From assembly GCA_036396895.1 (NCBI GenBank), contig DASWKB010000004.1, forward strand, positions 8,829-72,828: a stretch of DNA of 64,000 nucleotides, given 5' to 3'. The notes under the pieces are model-generated. The model did no database searches. It saw only the letters and a list, made by a program, of their open reading frames with translations, and had not been told where the DNA came from. Shown one piece after another: positions 4,698 through 26,702 of this stretch (positions within the stretch are counted from its first letter, which is position 1; each line of letters begins with the position of its first letter). The DNA comes from a bacterium. Its GTDB lineage: Bacteria > Omnitrophota > Gorgyraeia > Aquiviventales > Aquiviventaceae. The translations under genes and the position numbers were made by a program.

Positions 4698-4735
4698 CTG
4701 GGGTCTGCCCCCAAGACTCGACGCCCTCTCCCCTC

Positions 4736-4781
4736 GGTATCAGATACGTATCTGATACGTATCAGATACGTATCTGATACC
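4736..4781. repeat. REP-like perfect 46-nt palindrome (11-nt word GTATCAGATAC arranged word-rc-word-rc)
   Basis: GGTATCAGATAC GTATCTGATAC GTATCAGATAC GTATCTGATACC read directly from the sequence; it equals its own reverse complement. Confidence 0.9.
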
Positions 4782-4870
4782 GATTAGGGGTTGTCAGGAA
4801 CGCCAGGATCTCGCTAGAATAGCAACGCTCCCCACCCGACGGCCTGCAGGAATCTTCAAGGAGGCCGTCC

Positions 4871-5458: not shown

Positions 5459-5473
5459 TACGTATCTGATACC
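5428..5473. repeat. REP-like 46-nt hairpin (same word arranged word-word-loop-rc-rc); overlaps the last ~10 codons of the RAYT ORF
   Basis: GGTATCAGATACGTATCAGAT-ACAG-ATCTGATACGTATCTGATACC gives a 21-bp perfect stem with a 4-nt loop. Confidence 0.9.
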
Positions 5474-5478
5474 GGGGG

Positions 5479-7888: not shown

Positions 7889-9408
7889 TTCGCCTCCGTC
7901 TCGAGCACCTCAAGACTGACCCGGCCGACGAACTGCCCGAGCGCCGCCAGCTCCTGCGCCTCCGCCTCGATCAGTCCGATGTGGGTCAGGTCCGCGGGCG
8001 CCTGGCCCAGCGTCGGATCGAGCGGCACCCACCGGCCCATCCAGACTTCCGGCCAGGCGTGGTAATAGAACCGCCCGTGCTGATAGACGAGCCCCGCCAT
8101 CATCCGCGTGGCGATGCCCCGGCTGCGCGCAAGCGCCGTGTACAGCACCGTGTGCTCGTGGCAGTCGCCCGTATTGGTCGCCATCACGTCGAGCGCTGTC
8201 GGAATGCCGATCGTGTACTGCTTCTTCAGCGTCCGCCAGACGTACGCATAGAGCGCCAGCGCCTGCTCCCACGGGCCGGTCCGGTCCCCCACCGCCTCAC
8301 GCGCCAGGGCGATCACCCGCGGATCGTCCGCCTGCACGAACGGACTGGGCGCGAGATACCCGCTCGGGGGCCCCGTCTCCGGCTCGGCCGACGGCACGGG
8401 GTCCTGCCCGCTGAGCTCAAGCAGCACCCACGGGCCCTCGGGCGCCTCCCGGCCGTAGGCCGCGAGGCGCTCCGGCGGCAGACGGCGCTGCCCGGCACGC
8501 TCGACGGTGATCTGCGACTCCCGCACCCCGCGCATCAGCACCACCGCGCGCGCCACGCGGGCCGGATCTCCAAGATCCGGCGTCACCGGCACCGATGTCG
8601 CGGACAACAAATCGAGCGCCGGCGACGCCCCGGAGAGCCCCGTCATCGCCTTTTCCATGGGCTCCTGCACGAGCTCCCAGCCCAGCGGCGAGGTCTCGCG
8701 CAGCACCTCGCCGTCCTGGGTGACCCAGCTCGTCGAGGTCATGCTGCCCATCGTCGTCTCGACGATGAGCGCCGTCCGGCCATCCACCAATTCGCTGCGC
8801 GGCACGCTGAACATCACCGGTTCCGGGCGCAGCGCCAGCGGGTTGAGCACGAGGAACGTGCCCTGCTGGCCCACCGCCAACTCGTGGAACACCGCCCACG
8901 ACGACATGCCGGTGACGAACGTGCGGCCCTGCGGGTCGCGCAGCTCGCTGGCGGCCTTCCCGCTCGGCGTTTCGATGGTGAGCCGGATGACGTCCCCGTC
9001 GCGCACGCCATGCCAGGCGACGCGCTGCTCGTCCGATACGACCCCGGCCTCGAACTCCGCCAGGCGCCAGTCGGCGTCGATGAACGCCCAGGCCTGGATC
9101 GACATGCGCTGCGGCTCCCCCAGGAGGTTGAAGACGAGCTCCCCTTGATCGCGGATCGAAATGCCGGGGATCCCGTTTCGCTCATGCGGCGCGATCAGGG
9201 TGTGCGCAAAGCCGAGTTTCGCCCCCTGATAGTAGATCCCGAACCACTGTTCCCGGACGTCCATCGTCGCCCGAAGCGTGGACAAGGCGGGCGCGGATCT
9301 GAGGAGCCACGGCCCGCGCTCATGGAGCAGCACGAGGCCCACCGACGCGCCCCACGCGGCGAGCAGGAGCGCATCAAGGAGCGCCATCTTCACGAGGGCC
9401 CGTCTCAT
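7885..9408 (-). CDS. Transglutaminase-like domain protein with N-terminal membrane anchor
   Basis: C-terminal core TGDCHEHTVLYTALARSRGIATRMMAGLVY..YYHAWPEVW..WVPLDPT carries the Cys-His-Asp transglutaminase triad pattern. Hydrophobic N-terminus. Confidence 0.7.
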   Translation of the reverse strand: MRRALVKMALLDALLLAAWGASVGLVLLHERGPWLLRSAPALSTLRATMDVREQWFGIYYQGAKLGFAHTLIAPHERNGIPGISIRDQGELVFNLLGEPQRMSIQAWAFIDADWRLAEFEAGVVSDEQRVAWHGVRDGDVIRLTIETPSGKAASELRDPQGRTFVTGMSSWAVFHELAVGQQGTFLVLNPLALRPEPVMFSVPRSELVDGRTALIVETTMGSMTSTSWVTQDGEVLRETSPLGWELVQEPMEKAMTGLSGASPALDLLSATSVPVTPDLGDPARVARAVVLMRGVRESQITVERAGQRRLPPERLAAYGREAPEGPWVLLELSGQDPVPSAEPETGPPSGYLAPSPFVQADDPRVIALAREAVGDRTGPWEQALALYAYVWRTLKKQYTIGIPTALDVMATNTGDCHEHTVLYTALARSRGIATRMMAGLVYQHGRFYYHAWPEVWMGRWVPLDPTLGQAPADLTHIGLIEAEAQELAALGQFVGRVSLEVLETEAK

Positions 9409-9415
9409 CGCCGCC

Positions 9416-10363
9416 TCACCGGCTCACGAGCTTCACGCGCCTGAACACGCGCTCGACGTCACGGCGGCGGCACAGCTCCGTGCCCGGCGTCATGGCCGCA
9501 GCCGTGCCGCAGGCGACGCCGAACCGGAACGACTCGGCGACCGGGCGCCCGCGCAGCCATGCCGTCACGAATCCCGCCACCAGCGAATCCCCCGCCCCGA
9601 CGGCGGAATCGACGCGCACCCGAGGCGCCTCCGCCACGAGCACGCGCGCCGAGCCCCGCTGCGCCAGCACCGCGCCCTCGCCGCCGAGCGACAGCACCAC
9701 CATCTCCGTGCCCAAGGCGCACATCCGACGCGCCGCGTCGGCGACCTTCGCGCGGCTCGAGAGCCGCTCACCCAGCAGCGCTTCCGCCTCGTGCCGGTTC
9801 GGCTTGATCATCCAGGGCCGCGCCTGAAGGCCCAGCTCGAGCGCCCGGCCGGACGCGTCCAGCACGACGGGGATCCGCCTTCGGCGCGCCCGGCGGATGA
9901 TCGCGCGATACCAGGATGCCGGCACGCCGGGCGGCAGGCTGCCGGAGGCGACCAGGCACGCGCCGCCCGCACACAGCCGATCGAGCTCGCGCTCAACCTG
10001 CCGGCGCGCCCGCGCGGGCACCCGCGGCCCCGCCGTGTTGATTTCCGTCAGCGCGGAGGGGCGGCGGGTGCGGACTTTGTAATTATTCCTGGTCGCGCCG
10101 TCCACGTCGACGTACCGGCAGGGGACGCCCACCCGCTCCATGAGCGCGCGGAAGATCCGACCGTCCTCGCCGCCGATCACCGCCAGCGCCGCCGTCGCGC
10201 CGCCCAGCTCCCGTACCACCCGGGACACGTTGATGCCTTTCCCCCCGGGGTGCCGGATGAATCCACCCGCCCGGTTCAGCTCGCCGGTGCGCAGCGACGC
10301 AAGCGTGACCCACTCATCGAGCGAGGGGTTCATGGTGAGCGTGATGATCCGGCGGGCCGCCAT
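9416..10363 (-). CDS. pfkB: PfkB-family sugar-phosphate kinase (1-phosphofructokinase / tagatose-6-P kinase type)
   Basis: ITLTMNPSLD..., GGKGINVSRV, C-terminal VDSAVGAGDSLVAGF motif. Confidence 0.75.
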   Translation of the reverse strand: MAARRIITLTMNPSLDEWVTLASLRTGELNRAGGFIRHPGGKGINVSRVVRELGGATAALAVIGGEDGRIFRALMERVGVPCRYVDVDGATRNNYKVRTRRPSALTEINTAGPRVPARARRQVERELDRLCAGGACLVASGSLPPGVPASWYRAIIRRARRRRIPVVLDASGRALELGLQARPWMIKPNRHEAEALLGERLSSRAKVADAARRMCALGTEMVVLSLGGEGAVLAQRGSARVLVAEAPRVRVDSAVGAGDSLVAGFVTAWLRGRPVAESFRFGVACGTAAAMTPGTELCRRRDVERVFRRVKLVSR

Positions 10364-10366
10364 CGG

Positions 10367-11827
10367 CTACCGCCCGTTCGCGGCGGACAGGCGCGCCGCA
10401 AGCGCCGACGCAAGCGCCGACGCCGTGGCCCGCTCGTAGATGTCCCGGTATGCCTCCGCCGCGGCGGCCCAGGAGAGATCCTGCTGCATCGCGCCGCGCA
10501 TCAGGCCCGCCCAGACGCCGGCGTCCTCGGACGCGCCGACGGCCCGGACGAGCGCATCCACCAGCGCCCGGGGCCCCGTCCCGTCGTAGACCAGTCCGGA
10601 GGCGGTGCCGTCGGACAGCGTCGAGGGCGCAAGCTCCACCACGCCGTCGGTCGCGCCGTCCAGGCGCCGCACGATCGGGACCGCGCCGTAGCGCATCCCG
10701 TGCAGATGGCCGAAGGCGCCCGCGCGCCCGTCGGATACCGGCAGCATCGCGTCGGCCCCCGCCGCGATCCGGCGCTGGAGCGCCTCGTCGGCTTCGCGCA
10801 CGTACGCCACCCGGGCCGGCTGCGCCGCCGCGCGCGAGCGCCAGGCGTCCTCGAGCTCGTCGCCGCCGATCAGGATGAGCTGAACCGGCAGGGCCGTCAC
10901 AAGCTGCTCGAGCGCGCCCGCCAGCCACCCGGTCGCTTCGGGATCGCCGCCAAGCCCCGGCACCGCGACCACGAGCTCATGACGTTCGGCGAGCTTGAGC
11001 TCCCGCTGCAGTACCAGCTTGCAGACGGATTTTCCCGCCGGCTGCGCCGCGGAAAACGGCATCGCGAGGCCAAAGCCGCCCGATGGATTCCACGCCTCCG
11101 CGTCGAGCCCGTGGAGCACGCCGATGAGGTCCTCTCCGCGGGCGCCGAAACTCCCTTCAAGCCCGCACCCGGTTCCCGGACGCCTCAGGCGCGCCGCGTA
11201 GCTGGGCAGGGCCGCCGTGACAAGGACGGCGGTTTCCACGCCCCCCTTGAGGCAGTTGATCGCCCCGCCCATCTCGAACGGCCCTCCGGCGAATCGATCA
11301 TCCGGAAGCCCCAAGGCGCTCCAGCGCTCGCGCGCCGCCACGCCCTGCCGGGCCGCGTCGTGGACGGTGAGCACCGACGCGGGGCCGCCGGAGATCCCCC
11401 AGGCCGCCCCCGCGTGGGCACAGACCGGCGCCGTCTGCCACTCGTGGCAGTGCACCACCTCCGGCCGCCAGGAGAATCTGACCTGCAGCTGGGGCACGAG
11501 CTGGCAAAAGACGCCGATCTGGTTCAGGTCCTCCGTCTCGAGCTCGCCGGCGCCCTGCAGCTCGATGGCGTAGAGGCACGCGCCGCCGGGACCGGAGCCC
11601 GTCCACACGCGCCCCAACTGAAGACGGTCGCCCGCGCGCGCGTGCAGCATGATCCCGCTCGGGGAGAGCCCGGCGCGCGACCGGTCGATCGAGGAGGACA
11701 GCGGAAGAGCCAGGCGGACCTCGTGCCCGCAGGACGCGAGCGCGCGGACGAGCCCCGCGACGTCCCGCGCCGCGGGCCCGTCGCCGGTGAGCGGCGCGCA
11801 CGCCGTCGCGACGATCAGCACGTCCAT
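10367..11827 (-). CDS. glgA: Glycogen synthase (GT5)
   Basis: Homology starts at the internal Met MDVLIVATACAPLTGDGPAARDV (ATG at 11827, in frame). The upstream 211 aa of the listed ORF are Arg/Pro/Ser-rich read-through overlapping the next gene. Confidence 0.8.
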   Translation of the reverse strand: MDVLIVATACAPLTGDGPAARDVAGLVRALASCGHEVRLALPLSSSIDRSRAGLSPSGIMLHARAGDRLQLGRVWTGSGPGGACLYAIELQGAGELETEDLNQIGVFCQLVPQLQVRFSWRPEVVHCHEWQTAPVCAHAGAAWGISGGPASVLTVHDAARQGVAARERWSALGLPDDRFAGGPFEMGGAINCLKGGVETAVLVTAALPSYAARLRRPGTGCGLEGSFGARGEDLIGVLHGLDAEAWNPSGGFGLAMPFSAAQPAGKSVCKLVLQRELKLAERHELVVAVPGLGGDPEATGWLAGALEQLVTALPVQLILIGGDELEDAWRSRAAAQPARVAYVREADEALQRRIAAGADAMLPVSDGRAGAFGHLHGMRYGAVPIVRRLDGATDGVVELAPSTLSDGTASGLVYDGTGPRALVDALVRAVGASEDAGVWAGLMRGAMQQDLSWAAAAEAYRDIYERATASALASALAARLSAANGR

Positions 11828-11879
11828 GGGCACGATTCTGAGGGGGCGGCGCGAACGATCCGCGGCATCGTGATCGCGG

Positions 11880-13628
11880 TCAAGATCCAGGACCCGCCGG
11901 CGTGGCGGAGGCCGGCGGCCGCGCCGCCTGCTCCGAGCCAGCGTTCGCCGCGGGCGCCGAGGCCAGGCGCGCCGAAGGCGTCGACGCGCGGCGGCGACCC
12001 TCCGATGCCAAGGCCGCCTGGAACCCTCCCCCGGGCTCCGGGGGAAGGTTGGCGTACACGCGGTAGTCCACGAACGGGAACAGGTTGTCCTGCGATTCGA
12101 ATCGGGCGAGCCGGCTCTCGTCGATCTCCTGGGCTTCGAGGGCGTCGGCGAGGACATCGAACCGCTCCATGTGGTCCTGCAGACGCCCGTAGGCGTAGCT
12201 CGCGTGCGACTGCGTCTTGATGATGAATCCCCAGTCCGAGGCCTGCGCCAGCAGGAGCTCCCGCGCCATCTGGTTGAGCACGCGCAGCGACGGGCCGTGC
12301 GCGTCCGGCATGGCCGACGTGAGCCGCACCATCCGCTCCGCCATGCGGTGCAGCCGCGGCCAGATCCAATCGTTGGAGCCGTTGAGCCACATGTCGTGAT
12401 AGCCCCGGACGCCCCAGCTCGACATCGCCGGCTGCTGCATCTGGAATTCGCCGGCGCCGTCAATGACCCTGGCGGGCGTCGTCATCCTCAGGTCCCTGGC
12501 TTCCCTCTGCACGTCGCGGATGACCAGCTCCAGCCAGTCCGTGCCCTCGAACCACCAATGTCCGAACAGCTCCGCGTCGTACGGGCTCACGATGACGGGG
12601 CCGCGCCCCAGCACCTCCTTGAGGCGGAGCGCATGCGCGTCGCGCTCGCGGACGAAATTCCTGGCATGTGCCGCGGCCTGCGCGCGCGCCCGGTCGGGAT
12701 CGTAGGGCTCCTTCTGGTCCGTCGCGCCCGTGATGCGGTAGTACTTGATCCCCGTCGCCGTTCGCGAGCCGTCTCCTCCGAGGTACGGGCGCAGGTAGTC
12801 GGTGTCGAGATCGTACCCGATGTCGCGGTGGAATTCCCGGTAGTCCGGGTGGCCGGGATAGCCCTCGATCGAGCTCCAGACCTGCTTGGACGACGCGAGG
12901 TCGCGCCCGAAGACGATGACGCCGCTGGGCGTGCGCACCGGCGCGTGGACGCCGAACCGGGGGCGGGGCTCGCCGAACAGGACGCCGTGGGCATCCACGA
13001 TCACGTAGCCGACGCCTTCCTCGCGCAGGATCGCGTCCAGGCCGGGCGCGTAGCCGCACTCCGGCAGCCACAGTCCGCGCGGCCGGAATCCCATGAACTC
13101 CTCGAAGGCCTGGAGCCCGACGCGGATCTGCGCGCGGACGGCCGCCGGGTGCCGGTCCAGCAGCGGGAGGTACCCGTGGGTCGCGCACGTCGTCATCAGC
13201 TCCAGCCCGCCCTGGAGGTGCAGCGACCGGAACGCGGCGATGAGATCGCGCCGGTACACTCCCGTATACACGCGATGGGCTTCGCGCGCGCGGCCCGCGT
13301 ACATCCGCGCGAGGCGGTCGAAGGGGGGGAGCCACTTCGTCCGGACCGTCTCCTTCTCGGCGAGCTCGATCTGGCGCTCGAGGTGCCGGACATAGCGCTC
13401 CTGCAAGAGCGGATCCGCCAGCATGGCCAGCAGGGTGGGACTGAGCGAGACCGTCAGGTGGAGGGCGAGCCCGTCATCCGCGAGCCGCTGGAGGCGCTGC
13501 AGGATCGGAAGGTACGTCTCCGTGATGGCTTCGAACAGCCACCGCTCCTCCAGGAACTCCGCGTGCTCCGGGTGGCGGATGTACGGCAGATGCGCGTGCA
13601 GAATGAGGACCAGCTCGCCGCGATGCAT
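11880..13628 (-). CDS. GH57-family 1,4-alpha-glucan branching enzyme
   Basis: MHRGELVLILHAHLPYIRHPEHAEFLEERWLFEAITETYLPIL... is the typical GH57/DUF1957 N-terminus. Start chosen at the in-frame ATG 13628. Confidence 0.75.
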   Translation of the reverse strand: MHRGELVLILHAHLPYIRHPEHAEFLEERWLFEAITETYLPILQRLQRLADDGLALHLTVSLSPTLLAMLADPLLQERYVRHLERQIELAEKETVRTKWLPPFDRLARMYAGRAREAHRVYTGVYRRDLIAAFRSLHLQGGLELMTTCATHGYLPLLDRHPAAVRAQIRVGLQAFEEFMGFRPRGLWLPECGYAPGLDAILREEGVGYVIVDAHGVLFGEPRPRFGVHAPVRTPSGVIVFGRDLASSKQVWSSIEGYPGHPDYREFHRDIGYDLDTDYLRPYLGGDGSRTATGIKYYRITGATDQKEPYDPDRARAQAAAHARNFVRERDAHALRLKEVLGRGPVIVSPYDAELFGHWWFEGTDWLELVIRDVQREARDLRMTTPARVIDGAGEFQMQQPAMSSWGVRGYHDMWLNGSNDWIWPRLHRMAERMVRLTSAMPDAHGPSLRVLNQMARELLLAQASDWGFIIKTQSHASYAYGRLQDHMERFDVLADALEAQEIDESRLARFESQDNLFPFVDYRVYANLPPEPGGGFQAALASEGRRRASTPSARLASAPAANAGSEQAARPPASATPAGPGS

Positions 13629-13657
13629 CGTGTGGTTGTGGCCGTGCCGGGCCGTGC

Positions 13658-15013
13658 TCAGCGCGTCGCGCCCGCCGCGGCCTCGGCCGGGTGCCGCCGG
13701 GCTTCGCGCGGCTGTTCGTGCGCGGTCTTCCGGCTGACGATGGGGATGATCCGGCGGACGTGGCGGCCGTTCGGCGACACGGCCTCGACGGGGATGGTCT
13801 GCGTGCCGTCCGGCAGGGCGAACCGGGCCGAGAACGTGCCGTCTTTCGCCACCTGAACGGGCTGGCCCTGGATGGTCACTTTCGCTTTGGGATCGGTCGC
13901 CCCGTAGACGATGAGCTCGGTGTCCACCCGCAGCCAGAACTGGTCGCGCTGCTCCGGGGCCTGCGCGGGAGGCCAGAGCGCGGAGAACAGCCCGAAGGAT
14001 GACACCGCGCCCGAGGAGAGCCACTCCGCGCTCGAGACGCCGGCCGCCCACGGGCCTCCGGCGCCGGCCGACGTGGCCTGCTTCCCGAAGAACCGCCGCA
14101 CGTCCTCGGCTGTGGTGCCGGCCGGGAGCCCGCCGCTCACCGCGTAGATCTCCCAGTACTCCTCTTCCGAGAGCGCCCAGCGCGGATCCACGGCGTCGGA
14201 GGGGCCGATGCGGGGCGTCGAAACGGCGTTCGACCGCGCCATCGGGATGAAGCGGCCGGATCGCGTCTTGATGCCGACCTCGGCCATGAACGTCCTGCCG
14301 GGCGCGTTGGCGTGGATGTACCACGTGGTCGCCATGCTGGAAATCGGGATGTCGAAGCTGCCGCCCCCGTCGCTGATGTCGAAGACCCGCAGCAGCGACT
14401 GCACGCCTTCGATCTCCTCGGGCTTGAGCTGCCGCCGCACGTCGCGCTCGGTCTCGGCGTGGATGGTCCAGTACGCGTAGACCCACCAGGGGTCTTTCGC
14501 CATCAGGACCATCTCATCCACCGCGCTCGGCGCTTGCTCAAGCTTCGCCCGCTCCGTCACGAGCCGCCCGGCGGCGAATCTGGTCGGGTCGGCGACCGGT
14601 CGGATCCCCGGTCCCGCGGGCGGCCAAGCGATTGCCGTCGCCGTCAAGGGCTGGGCCGCCGGTGCGGCCGGCGCCTGAGCCTGCGGCGCTCTGGACGGGC
14701 CGTTCGGCCCGGTCGTCCGCGACGGACGCGCGGCGCGCCTCGCGTCGACGCCTGCGGCGCGCCTGGTGTCGCGCGACGCCGGGCGAGGCACGCGACGTGA
14801 AGACTTCGGAGGAGCCGCGTGGCGACGGGGGTTGGAGATCGCGGCGCGGACGCGGCGTGCCGCCGCGGGCGTCAGCGTCGAATCAGCGGGCTTGTTCGAA
14901 CGGGCGCGGGCGGAAGGACGAGCGGGTGTTGATACGGCTCGGCCGCGGCGCGCCGTGTGCGCCGCCGCCGACGATTTGGTGCGACGTGTCGTTGCCGAGG
15001 CACGCCGTGCCAT
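13658..15013 (-). CDS. DUF4912-type protein with basic low-complexity N-terminus
   Basis: DEMVLMAKDPWWVYAYWTIH... resembles the DUF4912 motif commonly found next to GH57/glgA genes. The N-terminal ~150 aa are R/A/P/S/T-rich. Confidence 0.5.
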   Translation of the reverse strand: MARRASATTRRTKSSAAAHTARRGRAVSTPARPSARARSNKPADSTLTPAAARRVRAAISNPRRHAAPPKSSRRVPRPASRDTRRAAGVDARRAARPSRTTGPNGPSRAPQAQAPAAPAAQPLTATAIAWPPAGPGIRPVADPTRFAAGRLVTERAKLEQAPSAVDEMVLMAKDPWWVYAYWTIHAETERDVRRQLKPEEIEGVQSLLRVFDISDGGGSFDIPISSMATTWYIHANAPGRTFMAEVGIKTRSGRFIPMARSNAVSTPRIGPSDAVDPRWALSEEEYWEIYAVSGGLPAGTTAEDVRRFFGKQATSAGAGGPWAAGVSSAEWLSSGAVSSFGLFSALWPPAQAPEQRDQFWLRVDTELIVYGATDPKAKVTIQGQPVQVAKDGTFSARFALPDGTQTIPVEAVSPNGRHVRRIIPIVSRKTAHEQPREARRHPAEAAAGATR

Positions 15014-17187: not shown

Positions 17188-17433
17188 TCAGCCCCCGACG
17201 ACGTCTCCGACGACAGGCTCGACCTTGACGCCCTTCTTCTCGAGGAACGCGAGCGCCTGCTTGAGCTGCTCCTCCGCGCCCTCGAGCTCGAGCGTCACTT
17301 CACCCACGTGCTCGGTCACTTTCGCCCGCCGGATGTTTGGCACGACGCTGTACTCCTTGGCCATCATGTAAATGACCGGCTCCTTGATGAGGTGCTGCGG
17401 AAAGATCAACGTCACTTGCTTCGTGGACATCAC
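17188..17433 (-). CDS. Stand-alone NIL (MetN C-terminal-like) domain protein ending in Gly-Gly
   Basis: 81 aa: VTLIFPQHLIKEPVIYMMAKEYSVVPNIRRAKVTEHVGEVTLELEG..ALAFLEKKGVKVEPV, then tail VGDVVGG-stop. Lies 12 nt downstream of moeB. Confidence 0.6.
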   Translation of the reverse strand: MMSTKQVTLIFPQHLIKEPVIYMMAKEYSVVPNIRRAKVTEHVGEVTLELEGAEEQLKQALAFLEKKGVKVEPVVGDVVGG

Positions 17434-17445
17434 ACGCCTCCTGGT

Positions 17446-18267
17446 TCACCATTCGCGTTGCGAATGCTGCACACACGAGCCGCCGGCCGATGCCGGCGGC
17501 AGCGACACGATGGTCGAGTGATCGCCGCAGACCGCGCAGGCCGGGTCTCGCCTGACGGGGACCGTCCGGAACGACGAGGCCGCGCCGTCAAAGACGAGGA
17601 GCCGGTCCGCCAGCGGCGTGCCGAATCCCAGCATGAGCTTGAGCGCCTCGTGCGCCATCAGGCTGCCGATCACGCCCGCCTCCGGCCCCAGCACGCCGGC
17701 CTCCCGGCAGCTCGGGATGGCGCCCGGCTCCGGCGGCTCCGGAAACACGCACCGCAGGCACGCGCTCCGGCGCGGCAGGACCGTGAGCACCTGGCCGCGG
17801 AACTGCACCACCCCGCCATGCACCAGCGGGATGCCGCCGAGGACGCAGGCGTCGTTCACCGCGTAACGCGTGGGGAAATTATCCGAGCCGTCCAGCACCA
17901 GCTGGTAGCCCGCCAGGAGCTCCGGCGCATTTTCGGCCGTGAGGCGCGTCCGGTGCGTCCGCACCTTCACCGCGGGATTCAGCGCGCGCAGCCGCTCGGC
18001 GCCGGACTCCGTCTTCGCGCGCCCGAGGGACGCCGTCGCGTGCAGGAGCTGCCGGTGCAGGTCGCTCGCGGCCACCTCGTCGGAATCGATGAGGCCGAGC
18101 GTGCCGACGCCGCTCCCCGCGAGGTAGAGCGCCGCGGGCGAACCGAGACCGCCGGCGCCGATCAGCGCCACGGATGCGCGGCGCAGCCGTTCCTGTCCTC
18201 CGACTCCAACCTCCGGGAGGATCAGCTGCCGGCTGTAACGCGCGATCTCCTCCTTGGTCAATCCCAT
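17446..18267 (-). CDS. moeB: MoeB/ThiF-type E1-like adenylyltransferase
   Basis: RYSRQLILPEVGVGGQERLRRASVALIGAGGLGSPAALYLAGSGVG; two CxxC pairs (CLRC, CAVC). Confidence 0.85.
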   Translation of the reverse strand: MGLTKEEIARYSRQLILPEVGVGGQERLRRASVALIGAGGLGSPAALYLAGSGVGTLGLIDSDEVAASDLHRQLLHATASLGRAKTESGAERLRALNPAVKVRTHRTRLTAENAPELLAGYQLVLDGSDNFPTRYAVNDACVLGGIPLVHGGVVQFRGQVLTVLPRRSACLRCVFPEPPEPGAIPSCREAGVLGPEAGVIGSLMAHEALKLMLGFGTPLADRLLVFDGAASSFRTVPVRRDPACAVCGDHSTIVSLPPASAGGSCVQHSQREW

Positions 18268-18328: not shown

Positions 18329-18604
18329 TCAGCCGCCGGCGATCGCCGGGATGATCGAGACCTCGTCCCCGTCCTTCACGGAGGTCTGGTCCCCCTGGAG
18401 AAACCGGATGTCTTCCTCGTTCACGAACACGTTCACGAAGCGCCGGAGCTTTCCCTGCTCATCGCAGATGCGCTCCCGGACGCCGGGATGCTTCCGCTCG
18501 AGGTCCTCCAGGATTCCGGCGACGGTCGTCCCGTCGCACGCCACTTCCCCCTGCCCGTTGGTCAGCCGCTGCAACGGCGTGGGGATCCGCACGGTCACTG
18601 CCAT
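18329..18604 (-). CDS. MoaD/ThiS/CysO-family sulfur-carrier protein (C-terminal AIAGG)
   Basis: 91 aa from the in-frame ATG 18604: MAVTVRIPTPLQRLTNGQGEV...DGDEVSIIPAIAGG-stop. The listed 476-aa ORF is read-through over thrC. Confidence 0.8.
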   Translation of the reverse strand: MAVTVRIPTPLQRLTNGQGEVACDGTTVAGILEDLERKHPGVRERICDEQGKLRRFVNVFVNEEDIRFLQGDQTSVKDGDEVSIIPAIAGG

Positions 18605-18663: not shown

Positions 18664-19926
18664 CTAGCCCTGAGACGGCCGGGCGGCCGCGCTCGCCAAC
18701 TGCTCGGCGAGATTCGCTTCGAACGACGCCAACGACGGGCGGATCCGCACGCCGGCGCCGACCCGGTTGACCAAGGGCTCCAGCGTCTTCAGCCCGTTGC
18801 CGGTGATGCAAATGACGATCGATTCGTCGCGGGGGATCCGGCCCTGCTCGATCAGTTTCCCGGCGGCCGCAACGGTCACCCCACCCGCCGTCTCGGTGAA
18901 CACGCCCTCGGTCTGGGCGAGGAGTTTCATCGCGTCGACGATCTCCTCGTCCGTGACGGCCTCGCCCCACCCGCCGGACTCGAGGGCCGTTTTCGTCGCG
19001 TAGTAGCCGTCGGCCGGGTTGCCGATCGCGAGGGACTTGGCGATCGTGTTGGGCTTGACGGGCTTGACGATGTCGCTGCGCTCCTGGATGGTGGTGACGA
19101 TCGGCGCGCACCCCGACGCCTGAGCGGCGTAGAACTTGGTGCGCGGCTCGCCGATCAGGCCCAGCCGGTGGAATTCCTTGAACGCCTTGCTGATCTTGGT
19201 GATGAGCGACCCGCCGGCGCAGGGCACGACGATGTGCGCGGGGGTCCGCCATCCGAACTGCTCCGCGATCTCGTAGCCGTACGTCTTGGATCCTTCCGCG
19301 TAGTACGGGCGGATGTTGATGTTGACGAACGCCCACGGGTACTTGCCGCCGATCTCGGCGCAGAGCCGGTTCACCTCGTCGTAGGTGCCTTCGACGGCGA
19401 CCAGCGTCGGCTGGTAGATCAGCGACGCCGCCACCTTGCCCGCCTCGAGGTCGGCGGGGATGAAGATGAAGCGCTTGAACCCGGCCCGCGCCGAGAGCGC
19501 GGACACGGAATTGGCGAGGTTGCCGGTCGAGGCGCACGCGACGGTATCGAAGCCGAGTTCGCGCGCCCGGCTGAGCGCGACCGACACGACCCGGTCCTTG
19601 AACGACAGCGTCGGGTGCGACACCGAGTCGTCCTTGATGTAGAGCTCGCGGACGCCGAGCGCGTCGCCCAGCCGCTCGGCGCGGAAGAAGGGCGTGAAGC
19701 CCGAATGGAACCCCGAGCTGGGCTCCCCGTCGATCGGCAGGAGCTCCCGGTAGCGCCACAACGTCGGCGGACGCGACGCGATCGCCTCACGCGTCAGCAC
19801 CCGGCGGATGCCGTCATAGTCATAATCGACTTCCACGCTGCCGAAGCAGAACTCGCAGACGAAGACGACGTCTTTCGGGTACACTCGCCCGCATTCCCGG
19901 CATCGCAGCCCGATCATATAACTCAT
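18664..19926 (-). CDS. Threonine-synthase-family PLP enzyme with N-terminal Zn-ribbon
   Basis: 420 aa. CRECG..CEFCFG ribbon. SFKDR PLP-lysine motif. Sits directly upstream of the sulfur-carrier gene. Confidence 0.75.
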   Translation of the reverse strand: MSYMIGLRCRECGRVYPKDVVFVCEFCFGSVEVDYDYDGIRRVLTREAIASRPPTLWRYRELLPIDGEPSSGFHSGFTPFFRAERLGDALGVRELYIKDDSVSHPTLSFKDRVVSVALSRARELGFDTVACASTGNLANSVSALSARAGFKRFIFIPADLEAGKVAASLIYQPTLVAVEGTYDEVNRLCAEIGGKYPWAFVNINIRPYYAEGSKTYGYEIAEQFGWRTPAHIVVPCAGGSLITKISKAFKEFHRLGLIGEPRTKFYAAQASGCAPIVTTIQERSDIVKPVKPNTIAKSLAIGNPADGYYATKTALESGGWGEAVTDEEIVDAMKLLAQTEGVFTETAGGVTVAAAGKLIEQGRIPRDESIVICITGNGLKTLEPLVNRVGAGVRIRPSLASFEANLAEQLASAAARPSQG

Positions 19927-19941
19927 CCCGTCACCGCACGC

Positions 19942-20011
19942 GTTCTCTGTGCCTCTGTGGTGTGGTGTTGGATCCTGACGTCCGATACAACGTGTTCTGT
20001 GCCTCTGTGTT
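19942..20011. repeat. CACAGAG-family words, two direct copies in CTCTGTG orientation
   Basis: GTTCTCTGTGCCTCTGTGGTGTGGTGTTGG ... GTTCTGTGCCTCTGTGTT. Related to the arms at 34901 and 45311. Confidence 0.7.
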
Positions 20012-20270
20012 AGGAGGCAGGCGCGCGCTTGCGCACGAGCAGCCGGATGCCTTCCGTCGCCGGCTCGCTCACCAGGATCTCATGCCCCTCGGCCCGCAGG
20101 CCGAACGGCAGCCGCCGGAGCACCTCCCCCTCGTCGAGATGGAGTTCCAGCACCTGACCCTCGCTCATGCCGTCGAGCTGCGTCCTGGCCTTCACGTAGC
20201 TGGAGGACGGGTCCTGCCCGCGCACGTCCAGCGTCGCGTCCACCCGCAAGCCTTGCGTGAATGCATCCAT
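20010..20270 (-). CDS. TusA-fold-like small protein lacking the conserved Cys
   Basis: 86 aa from the in-frame ATG 20270. LDVRGQDPSSSYVKARTQLDGMSEGQVLELHLDEGE aligns with the TusA D-x-R-G-x-x-C-P pattern, but with D-P-S in place of C-P. Confidence 0.45.
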   Translation of the reverse strand: MDAFTQGLRVDATLDVRGQDPSSSYVKARTQLDGMSEGQVLELHLDEGEVLRRLPFGLRAEGHEILVSEPATEGIRLLVRKRAPAS

Positions 20271-20278
20271 CCTGCGCG

Positions 20279-21223
20279 TCACCCCTCGAAATACGGCGCG
20301 ATGCTGAAATAGCGCTCGCCCGTGTCCGGCAGCACCGTCACAACCGTCTTGCCCGCTCCGAGCGCGCGCGCCACGCGCAGCGCCGCCCAGCAAGCCGCCC
20401 CCGAGGAAATCCCGACCAGCAGGCCCTCGCGCTTGGCCAGTTGCCGGGACGTCTCAAACGCGTCCTGGTCCGTCACTTGGATGATGTCGTCGATGATATC
20501 GCGGTTGAGCACCTCAGGCACGAATCCGGCTCCGATGCCCTGGATCATGTGCGGTCCGGGCGCCTTGCCGGACAGCACCGCCGACGCCGCCGGCTCCACC
20601 GCCACCACCCTGATGTTCGGCGATTTCTTCTTGAGGACCTCGCCCACCCCGGTGATCGTGCCGCCGGTGCCGACCCCCGCGACGAACGCGTCGATGTCGC
20701 CCTCGGCGCCCTTCAGGATCTCCTGCGCGGTCGTGCGGCGGTGGACCTCCGGGTTCGCCGGGTTCATGAACTGCTGCGGCATGTACGCGCCCGGCGTGTC
20801 CCGGAGGATCTGCTCGGCGCGCTTGACCGCGCCCATCATGCCCTCCGCCGCCGGCGTCAGCACCACCTCGGCGCCGTAGCTCTTCAGGATCTGAATCCGT
20901 TCGACGCTCATGGAATCCGGCATCGTCAGGACGACGCGGTAGCCCTTGGCGGCGCCGATCATCGCGAGACCGATTCCGGTGTTGCCGCTGGTGGGTTCGA
21001 TGATCGTCGCTCCGGCCGCCAGCAGGCCGCGGGTTTCCGCGTCCTCCACCATCGCGAGGCAGATGCGGTCCTTGACGCTGCCGCCCGGATTGGCGGACTC
21101 CAGCTTCGCGAGAATCGCGGCCATGCCCGGCTCCGGCAGGCGGCTCAGCCGCACGAGCGGAGTCTGCCCGATGAGCTCGGGCACCCGCGCCGCCACCCGC
21201 GCCCGCGCCGAGTTCGCCGTCAT
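20279..21223 (-). CDS. cysM: Cysteine synthase family PLP enzyme (CysM/CysK type)
   Basis: [25 protein letters not shown]-lysine motif, [19 protein letters not shown]. Confidence 0.85.
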
Positions 21224-21459
21224 GCCCGCCGGCCGCGCATCAGGCGCAGCGCGTCCCCGTTGTCCGACACCACGTTATGTCCGCATTCCCGCGCCCACAC
21301 TCCCAGATCCGTCCGGACGTCCGGCGCGTTGTACCGGATGTCCAACTCTCCGCCTGGCGGCAAGCCGCGCATGGCTCTGGCCACGACCCGAAGCGCCTGG
21401 GCGCAGAGCATGTCCTGCACGTCCACGGTCAGCGTCTGCTGAATCATGCCATTATACAC
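21220..21459 (-). CDS. TusA/SirA-family sulfurtransferase-like protein
   Basis: 79 aa; [39 protein letters not shown]. Overlaps the cysM start by 4 nt. Confidence 0.6.
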
Positions 21460-21633: not shown

Positions 21634-22035
21634 TCAACCCGACACGACGAGCGGTTCCTCGGTGATGCGGCCGTCTTCGATCCGGTAGCTCGCCACCCGC
21701 GGCTCGGACACGGTCTTGAGCGACACCAGCACGTACGACGCCTCCGAATAGACCGCGAGACTTGCATCCACCGGAGACGGATACGCGTCCGACGCCGTGT
21801 GCGAATGGTAAATGGCCACCATGTCCTGGCCGGCCGCCCTCAGCCGCCTCATGACCCGAAGCTGCTCCTTCGGGTCCATCGCGTAGCTGATGGGGCTGGC
21901 GTCGAGGTTCGTCATCGTGTAGACCTGCGCCGCCCGGCCGCTTCGCCCTCCGAGGATCCCGCAGGCCTCCTTCGGATACTCGGCGCGGCAGTGCGCGACC
22001 ATCTCGTCCCTCACCGCCTTCGAGAGTTCTAACAT
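21634..22035 (-). CDS. JAMM/MPN+ metalloprotease (Mec/CysO-hydrolase type)
   Basis: EACGILGG and HSHTASDAYPSPVD, matching the JAMM motif H-x-H-x7-S-x2-D. Confidence 0.85.
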   Translation of the reverse strand: MLELSKAVRDEMVAHCRAEYPKEACGILGGRSGRAAQVYTMTNLDASPISYAMDPKEQLRVMRRLRAAGQDMVAIYHSHTASDAYPSPVDASLAVYSEASYVLVSLKTVSEPRVASYRIEDGRITEEPLVVSG

Positions 22036-22150: not shown

Positions 22151-22906
22151 TCATGAAGCGAGTCCCCAGCGCACGCGCACGAGGCGGTCGAGCCGCTTGA
22201 ACACGAACCCGTCCACCGCCATCCCGATCCCCGCGATCAAGAGCATGATGGCCAACAGTTGATCCACCTGCTGGCCGCGCGCGGCGACGTTCAACAGCTC
22301 TCCCAGCCCGCTGACGGAGATGATGAGCTCCCCGGCCATCAGCGCGCGCCAGCCGAACGCCCAGGCCAGACGAAGCCCGTCGAGGATTTTCGGCGTCGCG
22401 GCCGGAATCACCACATGCCAGAAGAAGGCGGTCCCCGAGGCGCCCAGCGTCCTGGCCGCGCGCACGATCTGCGGCGGCACGTCCTTGATCCCGGAATCGG
22501 TGCTGACCATGACGACCCCCGTCGCGCCGAGGAGGATCGTGAACACGACCGCCTGCTCCGTCAGCCCGAACCACAGGACGGACAACGGGACCCAGGCCGC
22601 GCCGGGAATGGCGTGGATCGCCACCGCCACGCTCCCCATCAGCTCATCGAGCAGCCGGAACCGGCCCAGGAGCATGCCGGCGCTCACTCCGATGGCCACC
22701 ACGAACAGATACCCGATGATCATCCGGCGCAGGCTGCCCCCGAGCGCCTGACGGAACGCCGCGTCGCCGAGGTTCTCCATGAGCACGCGGCCCACGACAA
22801 ACGGGCCCGGCCAGGCCGGGAAGAGCCTCGCCGTGGCTTCCCACAGCGCGGCCAGGACCGCCAGCGCCGCAAGCTTCCTGACGATGGACCGCGCCACCGG
22901 GCTCAT
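22151..22906 (-). CDS. ABC transporter permease, NitT/TauT (nitrate/sulfonate/bicarbonate) family
   Basis: 251 aa, 6 TM-like segments; binding-protein-dependent permease pattern next to an SsuB/TauB-like ATPase. Confidence 0.7.
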   Translation of the reverse strand: MSPVARSIVRKLAALAVLAALWEATARLFPAWPGPFVVGRVLMENLGDAAFRQALGGSLRRMIIGYLFVVAIGVSAGMLLGRFRLLDELMGSVAVAIHAIPGAAWVPLSVLWFGLTEQAVVFTILLGATGVVMVSTDSGIKDVPPQIVRAARTLGASGTAFFWHVVIPAATPKILDGLRLAWAFGWRALMAGELIISVSGLGELLNVAARGQQVDQLLAIMLLIAGIGMAVDGFVFKRLDRLVRVRWGLAS

Positions 22907-22911
22907 CCGCG

Positions 22912-23751
<840 letters not shown>

Positions 23752-23777
23752 GGGGGTGCTGGCCTCCGGCGCCGACG

Positions 23778-24956
23778 CTACGCCGCGGCCTGCTGCCGCA
23801 TGGCGTCGATCAGCACCTCGGCGACCTCCCGACGGGAAATCTCAGGCGGCGGGGGCGTCCCGGCCTGCAGCAGCTCCCGCACCTTGGTCCCGCTCAGCGT
23901 CACGTGCCGCTCCGCCGGGTGCGGGCAGGTCTTGGAGGAGACCATGCCCTCGCAGACGGTGCAGTACGCCGTGTGCTCGAAGCAGAGCGGCGTGATCCCG
24001 ATGTCCCCCGGCGGAAAGTCGTCGAAGATCCGCTGCGCGTCATACGTGCCGTAGAATTTCCCCACCCCGGCGTGGTCGCGGCCCACGATGAAGTGCGTGC
24101 AGCCGTAGTTCTTCCTGATCAGGGCATGGAACACCGCCTCCTTCGGGCCGGCGTAGCGCATCGAGGCGGGATTGACGGCCAGGACGACCCGGTCCGCGGG
24201 ATAGTAGCCGGCCAGCAGCACCTCATAGCTGCGCATCCGGACCGCCGCGGGCACATCGTCCCCCTTCGTCTCGCCGATGATCGGATGGAGCAGGAGCCCG
24301 TCGCAGATTTCAAGCGCGCACTTCTGGATATACTCGTGCGCGCGGTGAATGGGGTTGCGGGTCTGGAACGCGACGACGCGCCGCCAGCCGCGCTCCTGAA
24401 AGATGCGCCGGGTGTCCGCGGGATCGAGCCGGGCGGCCTGAAAGGTCGTCTGCGCCGGCCGGTTCACCACGCTGATCGTCCCGCCGAGTGATACCTCGCC
24501 CGCGCTCATCAATCGCGCGACCCCGGGATGCGACGCGTCCGTCGTGCCGAACACCGCCTGCGCTTCCCGGGCTTTATCCGGCGTATACAGGTCTTCCAGA
24601 TGCAGCACCGCCACGATCTCGCCGCCTGCGCGCAGCGCGACCTCCCGCGCTCCGCGGAGGCGATCGCCCTCGTCCCGGTTCACCGCCAGCGTCACCGGAA
24701 TCGTCCAGACGAGCCCGCCGGCCAGCCGGCCCTTGGCGAGGACGGATTCGTAATCGCGCTTGGCCAGGAAGCCGGTCAGCGGACTGAATCCGCCGATGGC
24801 GATCATCTCGACATCGGACAGCGCCCAGCCGTCCAGCTCAACAGCCGGCGCCTTCGAGGCCTTCGCCAAGAGAAACTCCCGATCCTTGCCCGTCACAATC
24901 CGGTTGATCAAGGTGCCACCGTGGGGCTCTATCATCGGATCCTCATGTTTGTCCAT
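23778..24956 (-). CDS. sat: Sulfate adenylyltransferase (ATP sulfurylase)
   Basis: IEPHGGTLINR, VAFQTRNPIHRAHE, GCTHFIVGRDHAG motifs. Confidence 0.9.
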   Translation of the reverse strand: MDKHEDPMIEPHGGTLINRIVTGKDREFLLAKASKAPAVELDGWALSDVEMIAIGGFSPLTGFLAKRDYESVLAKGRLAGGLVWTIPVTLAVNRDEGDRLRGAREVALRAGGEIVAVLHLEDLYTPDKAREAQAVFGTTDASHPGVARLMSAGEVSLGGTISVVNRPAQTTFQAARLDPADTRRIFQERGWRRVVAFQTRNPIHRAHEYIQKCALEICDGLLLHPIIGETKGDDVPAAVRMRSYEVLLAGYYPADRVVLAVNPASMRYAGPKEAVFHALIRKNYGCTHFIVGRDHAGVGKFYGTYDAQRIFDDFPPGDIGITPLCFEHTAYCTVCEGMVSSKTCPHPAERHVTLSGTKVRELLQAGTPPPPEISRREVAEVLIDAMRQQAAA

Positions 24957-25094: not shown

Positions 25095-26477
25095 TTACTT
25101 GACAGATTTACGGAGGCGGGAAAGCCAGGCCTTGATGGTCCGTTCGTAGCCAAGGTCAGTCGGCTCGTAGTACCCGAGCGACGCGCCGGAAGGCACGTAG
25201 TCCTGCTTCACGTAGTGCTGAGCGCCCTCGTGCGCGTACTGGTAGCCGACCCCGCGCCCGAGCTGCTCTGCGCCTCGGAAGCTCGACCCTTTCAGATGGT
25301 CGGGCACCTCGAGCGTCCGGCCGGCTTTCACGTCTTTCAGCGCCCGCTCGATGCCAAGGTACGCCGCGTTCGATTTCGGCGCGCAGGCCACATAGACCGT
25401 CGCCTGCGCCAGCGGAATGCGGCACTCGGGCAGCCCGACGAATTCCGACGCGTGCAGCGCCGCCACCGCAAGCGCGAGCGCCTGCGGATCGGCGTTGCCG
25501 ACGTCCTCCGAGGCGCAGATGACGAGGCGGCGCGCGATGAACCGCGGGTCCTCGCCCGCGTAGATCATCTTGGCCAGCCAGTAGAGCGACGCGTCGGGAT
25601 CCGAGCCGCGCATGGACTTGATGTACGCCGAGATCGTATCGTGGTGCGCGTCGCCTTCCTGGTCATACACGACGGCCTTCTTCTGGATGGACTCCTCCGC
25701 GGCCTCGCGGCTGAGCACGACGGTGTCCGAGGCGTCGGGCGGGGTCGTCAGCACCGCAACCTCGAGCGCCTGCAGCGCGCGCCTGGCGTCGCCGTCGCAA
25801 ACGTCGGCCAGGTGCCGCAGCGCGTCGTCGTGCGCGTCGACGGCCCGCGCGCCGAGGCCGCGCTCGCGATCGGCGAGCGCCCGCGTGAGCAGCGTCATCA
25901 CGTCCTCCGCGGACAGCGGCTTGAACTCGCACACCAGCGACCGGGACAGGAGGGCCGAGGCGATCGTGAAGAACGGATTGGCGGTCGTCGCGCCGATCAG
26001 GATCGGATTGCCCTGCTCCACATCGGGCATCAGCACGTCCTGCTGCGCCCGGTTGAAGCGGTGGATTTCATCGAGAAACAGAATCGTCCGCCGCCCGTCA
26101 AGGCGCGCGCGGTCCTTGGCGCGCGTGATGGCGTCCCGGACCTCGCCCACGCCGGCGGCCGTCGCATTCAGCGGCTCCCAGTGCGCCTTCGTCCGGCCGG
26201 CGATCACGTGTGCGAGCGCGGTCTTGCCCGTCCCGGGCGGGCCGTAGAGCACGAGCGACGTCAGGCGGTCCGCTTCAATCGCGCGGCGCAGCAGCTTCCC
26301 CGGCCCGAGCAGGTGCGCCTGGCCCGCGAACTCCTCGAGCGTTCTGGGGCGCATCCGGGCCGCCAGCGGCTGCGCGGCGGCGGGGCCGGTTGCGGACGGC
26401 GCGGGGAACAGCGTGGGCTCCTGCATGGGTCCTCCGGATGAGAAAAACGCCCCGCGACTGCCGTGGGCGCCCGTCAT
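25095..26477 (-). CDS. rarA: Replication-associated recombination protein A (AAA+ ATPase)
   Basis: LAARMRPRTLEEFAGQ.HLLG, LYGPPGTGKTALA, FLDEIHRFN, and the MgsA C-terminal domain. The true start may be the internal MQEPT at 26426. Confidence 0.85.
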   Translation of the reverse strand: MTGAHGSRGAFFSSGGPMQEPTLFPAPSATGPAAAQPLAARMRPRTLEEFAGQAHLLGPGKLLRRAIEADRLTSLVLYGPPGTGKTALAHVIAGRTKAHWEPLNATAAGVGEVRDAITRAKDRARLDGRRTILFLDEIHRFNRAQQDVLMPDVEQGNPILIGATTANPFFTIASALLSRSLVCEFKPLSAEDVMTLLTRALADRERGLGARAVDAHDDALRHLADVCDGDARRALQALEVAVLTTPPDASDTVVLSREAAEESIQKKAVVYDQEGDAHHDTISAYIKSMRGSDPDASLYWLAKMIYAGEDPRFIARRLVICASEDVGNADPQALALAVAALHASEFVGLPECRIPLAQATVYVACAPKSNAAYLGIERALKDVKAGRTLEVPDHLKGSSFRGAEQLGRGVGYQYAHEGAQHYVKQDYVPSGASLGYYEPTDLGYERTIKAWLSRLRKSVK

Positions 26478-26702
26478 TGATGAACCCTTCCCTCATCAGG
26501 TGGGTATCCTCTCCAATCGGGTGAGTGCGTCCCGTGCGTGCTTGGGCATGCACGTCCGAGCGGAAGCCGGATTCCCGGTCACATCGTGTTGGCTCAAAAT
26601 GACAGCGCCTCACGCACAGCGCAGGGCATACGTAGCGTACCACCGGGCGTTGTCGTTGGCAAGGGGGGTCAGGGGGGATTCAGGCCGACCAGCAACCATG
26701 AC

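Follow-up and report, generated by a model that had tools for sequence, protein, structure and literature searches.

A NIL-domain protein as a companion of MetM/MetO-type sulfur-carrier cassettes: a candidate methionine sensor with a variable C-terminal end

When a small protein ends in Gly-Gly and its gene immediately follows that of an E1-like adenylyltransferase, the question arises whether it is a carrier activated by this enzyme. Such a gene is found on the minus strand of a 64,000-nucleotide (nt) stretch of Omnitrophota DNA (assembly GCA_036396895.1, contig DASWKB010000004.1, positions 8,829 to 72,828), referred to here as the window. A previous sequence-only reading had recognised in its product a stand-alone NIL domain and had proposed that it could be either a second substrate or carrier of the E1 or a sulfur or methionine sensor. 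Judging from gene order and gene fusions in other genomes, the NIL protein is a so far undescribed companion of the MetM/MetO cassette for homocysteine synthesis, which it accompanies widely across phyla, and the Gly-Gly end of the window protein is neutral variation of its last two residues.

The open reading frame (ORF) 17188..17433 is present on the minus strand and its translation, read from the sequence, ends KGVKVEPVVGDVVGG-stop. The 81-amino-acid (aa) form described by the sequence-only reading, whose coordinates and translation were confirmed, would begin with an in-frame GTG at 17433. Translation more likely starts from the ATG at 17428-17430 and yields 80 aa, the length that public gene calls for the identical sequence (P0001) have as well. 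The NIL gene, its signals and the three genes preceding it are the following:

17188..17430, minus strand: NIL-domain gene, 80 aa from the likely ATG at 17428-17430, stop codon TGA at 17188-17190
17191..17217, minus strand: codons of the C-terminal tail P72-V-V-G-D-V-V-G-G80, in which P-V-x-G-D-V-V is conserved and the last two residues are variable
17323..17337, minus strand: codons of the 'NIL' motif N32-I-R-R-A36 on strand beta2; N32 corresponds to N295 of MetN and A36 to A299
17437..17442, minus strand: Shine-Dalgarno sequence AGGAGG, 6 nt 5' of the NIL ATG and inside the 15-nt gap after the MoeB stop codon
17446..18267, minus strand: ThiF/MoeB-type E1-like adenylyltransferase, 273 aa, without rhodanese domain (Pfam ThiF, E=4.6e-78)
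18329..18604, minus strand: ThiS/MoaD-type beta-grasp sulfur carrier (MetO/CysO-like) ending IIPAIAGG (Pfam ThiS, E=1.3e-18)
18664..19926, minus strand: ThrC-like pyridoxal phosphate (PLP) enzyme with an N-terminal Cys4 zinc-ribbon, candidate MetM (Pfam PALP, E=3.5e-68, and a NinF-like ribbon match)

The MoeB gene stops with TGA at 17446-17448, leaving a 15-nt spacer to the NIL gene. The position of the latter directly downstream of an E1-like gene, the canonical beta-grasp carrier at 18329-18604, the assignment to the NIL family and the flexible tail had all been noted by the sequence-only reading, and each of these points was borne out. The best matches of the E1 in NCBIfam were MoeB, MoeZ and the SAMP-activating E1, and the carrier matched SAMP1 with 61.4 bits against a cutoff of 60. 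The ThrC-like enzyme gave 283 bits with TIGR00260 (thrC).

The search for homologues of the NIL protein yielded 860 database sequences; the best 120 of them were 79-90% identical to the query and nearly all 79-80 aa long, apart from P0001, the window's own protein, with 100%. In addition, a full-library search returned 656 cluster representatives at E up to 0.001, and relatives were present in at least 447 species-representative genomes. Because of these numbers the ORF is clearly a real gene and not a chance one. The names given to its 80-aa homologues vary and are for the most part erroneous; among them are 'ABC-type methionine transport system ATPase subunit', 'ferredoxin', 'FeS-binding protein' and 'L-aspartate semialdehyde sulfurtransferase ferredoxin'. 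In the two Omnitrophota loci L001 and L002 the ThiF and NIL genes have 19 nt in common (8001-8019), which suggests translational coupling; the window differs from both in having the gap with the Shine-Dalgarno sequence instead of an overlap.

The surroundings of the NIL gene were compared in 80 species-representative loci, taken with a 30-sequence alignment out of at least 447 genomes and belonging mostly to the window's own subfamily. They came from Omnitrophota, Nitrospirota/Thermodesulfovibrionia, Planctomycetia, Margulisiibacteriota, WOR-1, Dehalococcoidales, Chloroflexota, Elusimicrobia and Deferribacteres. Homologues of the operon proteins were located in them by tblastn, and the counts refer to those 59 loci whose upstream sequence spans 3 kb or more; the contexts of the 'GW' NIL subfamily were taken from five individual look-ups. 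Directly upstream of NIL, the gene encoded ThiS in 48 of these 59 loci, ThiF in nine and the ThrC-like enzyme in two. Within 4 kb of NIL, ThiS was found in 56, a close homologue of the ThrC-like enzyme in 51, ThiF in 34, a JAB protease in 27 and CysK in 11. The adjacency to the E1 gene, on which the sequence-only reading had laid weight, was therefore conserved only in part. After these counts it was rejected as the primary link of NIL and replaced by ThiS and MetM. The juxtaposition of ThiF and NIL in the window reflects the Omnitrophota gene order ThrC-like-ThiS-ThiF-NIL.

Other lineages presented other arrangements of the same genes, and in the looked-up loci of other phyla the ThrC-like enzyme was always paired with ThiS, NIL or both. 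A three-gene cassette ThrC-like-NIL-ThiS occurred in three unrelated contigs (L014, L015 and L016) with no adjacent E1, and a Rokubacteria locus (L013) had the order ThrC-like-ThiS-NIL. About 2 kb 3' of the cassette of L015 (9419-13752) there are genes for an Rrf2 regulator, CysK, a ThiS-ThiF fusion, ThiS, a second PALP enzyme and JAB, so that two thiocarboxylate systems stand side by side, NIL being with the MetM one only. MetM-NIL cassettes without nearby ThiS were found in L009, L065 and L094. The first of these, from Chloroflexi, reads CysK-CysE-MetB/Z-like-ThrC-like-NIL-NifS-like; 3' of MetM-NIL (7247-10754) it encodes a cysteine-desulfurase-like class-V aminotransferase, an AIR-synthase-family protein, MOSC and FdhD, a gene set which may represent a different sulfur-delivery route to the same enzyme.

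The Thermodesulfovibrionales have TusA-ThiF-JAB-ThrC-like-ThiS-NIL, after which come a further, shorter ThrC paralogue, a phosphoglycerate-mutase-family gene and aspartate kinase. In a subset of Nitrospirota the order is homoserine dehydrogenase-TusA-ThiF-JAB-ThiS-NIL, again followed by the mutase-family gene and aspartate kinase. MetM-ThiS-NIL with the second ThrC, the mutase-family gene and aspartate kinase behind it was seen in 14 of the 59 loci (for instance, L011 at 3919-7431 and L048 at 8447-11025). The second ThrC of Thermodesulfovibrionia is about 37% identical to the MetM-like enzyme, and its presence beside MetM-ThiS-NIL indicates that the two paralogues diverged in function. The mutase-family gene, of the cofactor-independent type, is likely an alternative homoserine kinase, and the Thermodesulfovibrionia set appears to be an operon centred on the O-phosphohomoserine branch point, with which the homoserine dehydrogenase, candidate homoserine kinase, aspartate kinase and separate ThrC of Nitrospirota are in agreement. 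Full-text literature searches gave no paper tying NIL/PF09383 to ThiS, ThiF, sulfur carriers or thiocarboxylate systems.

Fused genes are the most direct evidence for a link between NIL and the carrier. At least 119 protein clusters of 171-189 aa contain a full MoaD/CysO-type ThiS ending P-A-I-A-G-G, a basic linker of 4-9 residues and a full NIL domain ending ...P-I-E-K-D-V-I-E; the sources named were Thermodesulfobacteriota/Deltaproteobacteria and Limnocylindrales. In a second type a short ThiS ending Y-M-A-G-G is joined to NIL, which therefore represents an independent fusion event. The fusion genes were found as ThrC-like-ThiI-TusA-[ThiS~NIL]-JAB (L097) and as ThrC-like-[ThiS~NIL]. AlphaFold2 predicted both domains of a natural ThiS-NIL fusion as folded (predicted local distance difference test, pLDDT, 91) and the linker with less confidence; the two domains resemble beads on a string, and the Gly-Gly between them is exposed. 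Further architectures were JAB-NIL, tandem NIL-NIL and NIL-ferredoxin. The tandem proteins (P0121, P0128, P0148, P0271 and others, about 150-180 aa) carry the tail P-I-E-G-D-I-V-E on the second NIL only and could imitate the presumed NIL dimer in a single covalent chain. Two single-instance fusions, of a ThrC fragment (P0176) and a ThiF fragment (P0190) with NIL, had their domains confirmed; they may be gene-calling artefacts across overlapping genes and were given little weight.

As regards the protein itself, its sole Pfam match was PF09383 (NIL), with 61.4 bits against a cutoff of 24 and E=7.7e-17; the match spans residues 7-72 of the 81-aa form and positions 3-72 of the 73 of the profile. 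No match to ThiS or ubiquitin families was obtained in Pfam or NCBIfam. The AlphaFold2 model, built on a 42-sequence alignment, had a mean pLDDT of 92 and a ferredoxin-like beta-alpha-beta-beta-alpha-beta fold (strands 2-11, 30-38, 42-51 and 69-72; helices 19-27 and 53-65). The top 11 Foldseek matches in the PDB were all MetN C2/NIL domains, and the best one, 3tuz_H, from the selenomethionine-soaked MetNI crystal form 3TUZ, superimposed with a template modelling (TM) score of 0.83 and a root-mean-square deviation of 0.9 A. The window protein is therefore a bona fide NIL domain and no beta-grasp protein.

Profile alignment to the MetN chains of PDB entries 3dhx, 3dhw and 3tui matched N-I-R-R-A of the window protein to N295-I-I-S-A299 of Escherichia coli MetN. 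In MetN, the bound methionine hydrogen-bonds N295 across the C2 dimer, the N295A substitution lowers L-methionine binding to undetectable levels, and A299 lies on the C2 dimer strand, whose register shifts upon methionine binding (PMC6233128). Among 30 diverse homologues of the window protein, I33, R34, R35 and A36 were invariant and N32 nearly so. By this alignment, the ligand-contact position of MetN is kept in the window protein as N32.

In the C-terminal tail of the model, residues 73-80 had no secondary structure and residues 77-80 a pLDDT below 50. In the same 30 homologues D76 was invariant and V73, G75 and V78 were at least 90% conserved, giving a consensus P-V-x-G-D-V-V-E-(G/S), and the chain ends 0-2 residues past P-V-x-G-D-V-V-(E); in 269 of 296 family members the distance from the conserved Gly67 to the stop codon is 13-14 residues. 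The tail is thus a conserved motif predicted to be disordered on its own. The Gly-Gly end, which the sequence-only reading had taken as the hallmark of an E1 carrier, is not part of what is conserved. It was present in nine of the 120 closest homologues, all nine within one Omnitrophota sub-clade among the sequences nearest to the window, the commoner ends being ...VVGDVVS (51), SS (26) and SG (15). None of 118 diverse homologues from a profile search had it (70 end EG and most others VE or IE), nor did any of the 119 ThiS-NIL fusion proteins, and a single one was found among 80 GTDB species representatives. In 150 diverse cluster representatives it was also rare, with EG, ES and IE as the commonest ends. 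The usual endings are ...GDVVS, ...GDVVSS, ...GDIVE and ...GDIVEG, the last two residues varying among VS, SS, SG, GG, EG, IE and VE. An adenylated carrier C-terminus would not tolerate such drift of the last one or two residues, and NIL as a Gly-Gly carrier was rejected on the counts in four independent homologue sets. A role as persulfide carrier is also ruled out because the family has no conserved cysteine: the window protein has none, and Cys occurs in just 28 of 296 homologues of 70-90 aa.

The genes further upstream in this sulfur operon are the following:

20010..20267, minus strand: TusA-like protein without cysteine (Pfam TusA, E=9.8e-9)
20279..21223, minus strand: CysK/CysM-type cysteine synthase (TIGR01139, 454.6 bits against a cutoff of 351)
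21220..21459, minus strand: second small TusA-like protein (Pfam TusA, E=3.4e-7)
21634..22035, minus strand: JAB/JAMM metalloprotease, Mec/desampylase-like (Pfam Prok-JAB, E=6.9e-24)
22151-22906, minus strand: ABC permease, from the ORF and Pfam on the identical public contig L008
22912-23751, minus strand: ABC ATPase, from the same two sources
about 23778-24935, minus strand: ATP sulfurylase, from the same two sources

The Pfam calls for 22151..24935 were transferred from contig L008 to window coordinates. On the same strand the order is thus ATP sulfurylase, ABC ATPase, ABC permease, JAB, TusA-like, CysK/M, TusA-like without Cys, ThrC-like, ThiS, ThiF and NIL. The best NCBIfam match of the JAB protein was desampylase (E=9.1e-26, 90 bits, the model cutoff of 130 not being reached). 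In the TusA-like protein at 20010-20267, encoded between the CysK and ThrC-like genes, DPSSSY replaces the C-P-x-P motif; as it has no cysteine it cannot carry a persulfide, and it may be a degenerate, non-catalytic TusA-like subunit. The TusA upstream of ThiF in Nitrospirota (L048, 5625-5924) retains the Cys-Pro motif. An Rfam scan found no S-adenosylmethionine (SAM) riboswitch or other Rfam element in the window operon or in 10 NIL-bearing loci. Elsewhere in the window it gave a full-length 6S (SsrS) RNA gene (26445-26630, minus strand; 86.9 bits against a gathering score of 46.4), a minus-strand cluster of three tRNA genes (33820-33893, 33999-34082 and 34168-34239) and a single plus-strand tRNA gene (51170-51241). 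On the 3' side of the operon, at about 9300-14500 (minus strand), there is a glycogen-type cluster encoding DUF4912, a GH57 branching enzyme, a GT5 glycogen synthase-like protein and a PfkB kinase. This cluster is kept throughout the Omnitrophota relatives (L001, L002 and L005), and what lies between it and NIL varies: TerC and Sua5/TsaC in the window, a Na/Ca exchanger elsewhere.

The operon matches, in its set of components, a pathway in which O-phosphohomoserine is converted to homocysteine using the thiocarboxylate of MetO (Hasebe et al., 2024, as outlined in GapMind, 2026). There, MetO is the sulfur carrier, Mec matures it, MoeZ loads the sulfur and MetM is a threonine-synthase homologue 'often misannotated' as threonine synthase; NIL is absent from the four pathway proteins listed there. 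The assignment of the ThrC-like enzyme as MetM rests on architecture and synteny. By homology with the published steps, MoeB would adenylate the Gly-Gly end of the MetO/CysO-like carrier, which would then be turned into the thiocarboxylate; MetM would combine this with O-phosphohomoserine to form a carrier-homocysteine adduct, and the JAB protease would free homocysteine from it. CysK/CysM would do likewise for cysteine, its presence in the operon suggesting an analogous CysO/CysM route.

To a protein so placed we would assign, with about an even chance of being right, the role of a methionine-family ligand sensor or regulator and of a dedicated accessory component of the thiocarboxylate route to homocysteine. 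This is the half of the earlier proposal that no result contradicted, and it is favoured by the NIL fold and by the conserved methionine-contacting Asn of MetN, while the carrier half failed. NIL would dimerise like the C2 domain of MetN and bind methionine or a relative (homocysteine, SAM or O-phosphohomoserine) at the Asn32/Ala36 strand; its tail would contact MetM or the carrier, throttling or organising homocysteine synthesis at the O-phosphohomoserine branch point. Where NIL is fused behind the Gly-Gly of the carrier, it would have to be removed, presumably by JAB, before the carrier could be activated, and this step would give a built-in control point. The sensing role is supported by the occurrence of NIL domains in two other methionine systems, namely trans-inhibition of MetN (PMC6233128) and the MA1822/DvMF_0262 subunit of the DUF39 homocysteine pathway. 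It is also supported by the lack of a SAM riboswitch in the window and the 10 NIL loci scanned and by the presence of one that an mSystems paper reports for Streptomyces metM.

Several points weigh against a sensor. Synteny indicates functional linkage and not the direction of an effect, so a regulator, an adaptor or a chaperone would all fit, and the ligand is deduced by analogy with MetN alone. The extra arginines of NIRRA could mean a different, anionic ligand such as O-phosphohomoserine. The model of the ThiS-NIL fusion had a predicted TM score (pTM) of 0.54 and no confident interface between the two domains, with the NIL tail disordered. Finally, NIL-ferredoxin proteins carry the same tail motif (P-L-E-R-D-V-V) just before the Fe-S domain, and therefore the tail may serve the NIL domain itself and not docking to MetM.

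The alternative that best survives, possible but doubtful in our opinion, is that NIL acts as a non-regulatory adaptor or chaperone, or caps the Gly-Gly end of the carrier until it is removed. As an adaptor it would take up the carrier, or its homocysteine adduct with the methionine-like C-terminal residue, and pass it from MetM to JAB. The synteny and the fusions speak for this as much as for a sensor, and the fusions moreover put NIL in a 1:1 ratio with the carrier, with the JAB gene directly following in L097; a JAB-NIL fusion exists as well, and the conserved tail is disordered in isolation, as expected of a docking peptide. However, the fusion model predicts no defined packing of ThiS on NIL, the conservation of the ligand-contact Asn and of the dimer strand of MetN argues for small-molecule sensing, and some MetM-NIL cassettes have no ThiS nearby. 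A further combination, which we regard as rather improbable, would make NIL a methionine-responsive gate on the ubiquitin-like carrier: in many bacteria the pro-protein ThiS-GlyGly~NIL would be processed by JAB before activation by the E1, and the separate NIL of genomes such as that of the window would act in trans. With the end product bound, the conserved disordered tail P-V-x-G-D-V-V-E would fill the channel that receives the carrier tail in MetM, the E1 or JAB. If true, this would be a bacterial case of regulated maturation, or of pseudo-substrate control, of a ubiquitin-like protein, and NIL would be the missing fifth component of the MetM/MetO homocysteine pathway.

We consider it quite unlikely that NIL works together with a DUF39/COG1900 aspartate-semialdehyde sulfurtransferase whose gene lies elsewhere in the genome, as a ferredoxin-less version of MA1822 with an incidental place in the operon. 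The Joint Genome Institute (JGI) names some homologues after the ferredoxin of this enzyme, and NIL-ferredoxin proteins with the same tail motif are among the nearest relatives. However, the window protein has neither an Fe-S domain nor cysteines, no DUF39 gene was found within 10 kb of NIL in the window or in 12 looked-up loci, and the conserved partners of NIL are the MetM-like and ThiS genes.

It is still less probable, to the point of being very hard to maintain, that NIL is a second, non-beta-grasp substrate of the E1, adenylated and thiocarboxylated at its Gly-Gly as a sulfur carrier. E1-like enzymes can adenylate C-termini that are not beta-grasp, as MccB does on the MccA peptide, and this precedent favours the idea, together with the Gly-Gly end, the flexible tail and the gene 15 nt behind the E1 with its own Shine-Dalgarno sequence in this genome. 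Against this, both the terminal residue and its distance from the motif vary, the protein has a ferredoxin-like fold, the ThiS carrier accompanies NIL nearly everywhere while the E1 is seldom its immediate neighbour, and cysteine is scarce in the family. Conservation of the Gly-Gly and of the E1 adjacency were the two points on which the sequence-only reading had itself made the carrier role depend, and by both of them it is refuted at the family level. Just as implausible is a detached regulatory domain of the same-operon ABC transporter, in spite of the JGI label as ATPase subunit, the ABC ATPase and permease genes upstream on the same strand and the MetN C2 domains as closest solved structures, given that six genes separate NIL from the ABC genes, that these are missing from most other NIL contexts (L011, L013-L016 and L097) and that the sole NCBIfam MetN match reached 15 bits against a cutoff of 500, over the NIL region alone.

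The thiocarboxylate route from O-phosphohomoserine to homocysteine was described in 2024, and its current model comprises MetM, MetO, MoeZ and Mec. To these four proteins the survey adds a fifth, small one, NIL, found with MetM and MetO in many phyla, among them Omnitrophota, Nitrospirota, Planctomycetota, Chloroflexota, Rokubacteria and Thermodesulfobacteriota, and in a large group of genomes fused directly behind the Gly-Gly of the carrier. If NIL senses methionine, it would explain how flux at the O-phosphohomoserine branch point is controlled with no SAM riboswitch at the locus, it would be a general methionine-sensing module of an importer and two unrelated homocysteine synthases, and the fusions would show, in bacteria, a ubiquitin-like carrier whose precursor is synthesised with a sensor domain attached. 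The naming of NIL proteins as 'methionine ABC transporter ATPase', 'ferredoxin' or 'FeS-binding protein' and of MetM as threonine synthase distorts metabolic reconstructions of uncultured lineages. These results concern those working on sulfur amino-acid biosynthesis and on prokaryotic relatives of ubiquitin.

Among known systems, the locus resembles the MetM/MetO pathway. All four component types of MetM/MetO/Mec/MoeZ are in the window, as ThrC-like enzyme, Gly-Gly carrier, E1 and JAB, and CysK/M links the operon also with the CysO/CysM/Mec/MoeZ cysteine pathway of Mycobacterium tuberculosis. The differences are that the published pathway has four proteins and no NIL, that the window E1 lacks the rhodanese domain of MoeZ and that for the SAM riboswitch reported for Streptomyces metM no counterpart was found in the window.

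The C2 domain of MetN (E. coli MetNI; PDB 3DHW, 3TUZ and 3DHX) has family and fold in common with the NIL protein, and the C-termini are similar (...VKVEVLGYV in MetN, ...VKVEPVVGDVVGG in the window). However, the window protein stands alone with 80 aa and no fused ABC ATPase, its subfamily has NIRRA where MetN has NIISA, its tail is longer and strongly conserved (G-D-V-V-E), and its partners are the MetM and ThiS genes and not a transporter. The NIL-ferredoxin subunit MA1822/DvMF_0262 likewise joins a NIL domain with a homocysteine-forming system, and NIL-ferredoxin proteins (P0232 and P0249) show the same tail motif past the last strand. The MA1822 type, however, has two 4Fe-4S motifs, and P0232 consists of NIL and Fer4; the window protein has no such motif and no DUF39 neighbour, and the enzyme associated with it is a PLP-dependent ThrC paralogue using a protein thiocarboxylate.

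With the ThiS/MoaD/CysO/Urm1 carriers the likeness is confined to a C-terminal Gly-Gly on a flexible tail beside an E1 gene in this one genome; the NIL protein differs from them in its ferredoxin-like fold, its unconserved Gly-Gly and its unfixed terminal residue. A C-terminal extension of the carrier is itself known from ubiquitin-ribosomal protein fusions and from HcyS/HcyD and QbsE/QbsD, the extensions in these last two pairs being removed by JAMM proteases. The ThiS-GG-linker-NIL proteins resemble such precursors in having a folded domain placed right after Gly-Gly and a JAB gene beside them, with the difference that in the window the carrier and NIL are separate genes, that the carrier already ends in Gly-Gly and that cleavage of the fusions is putative.

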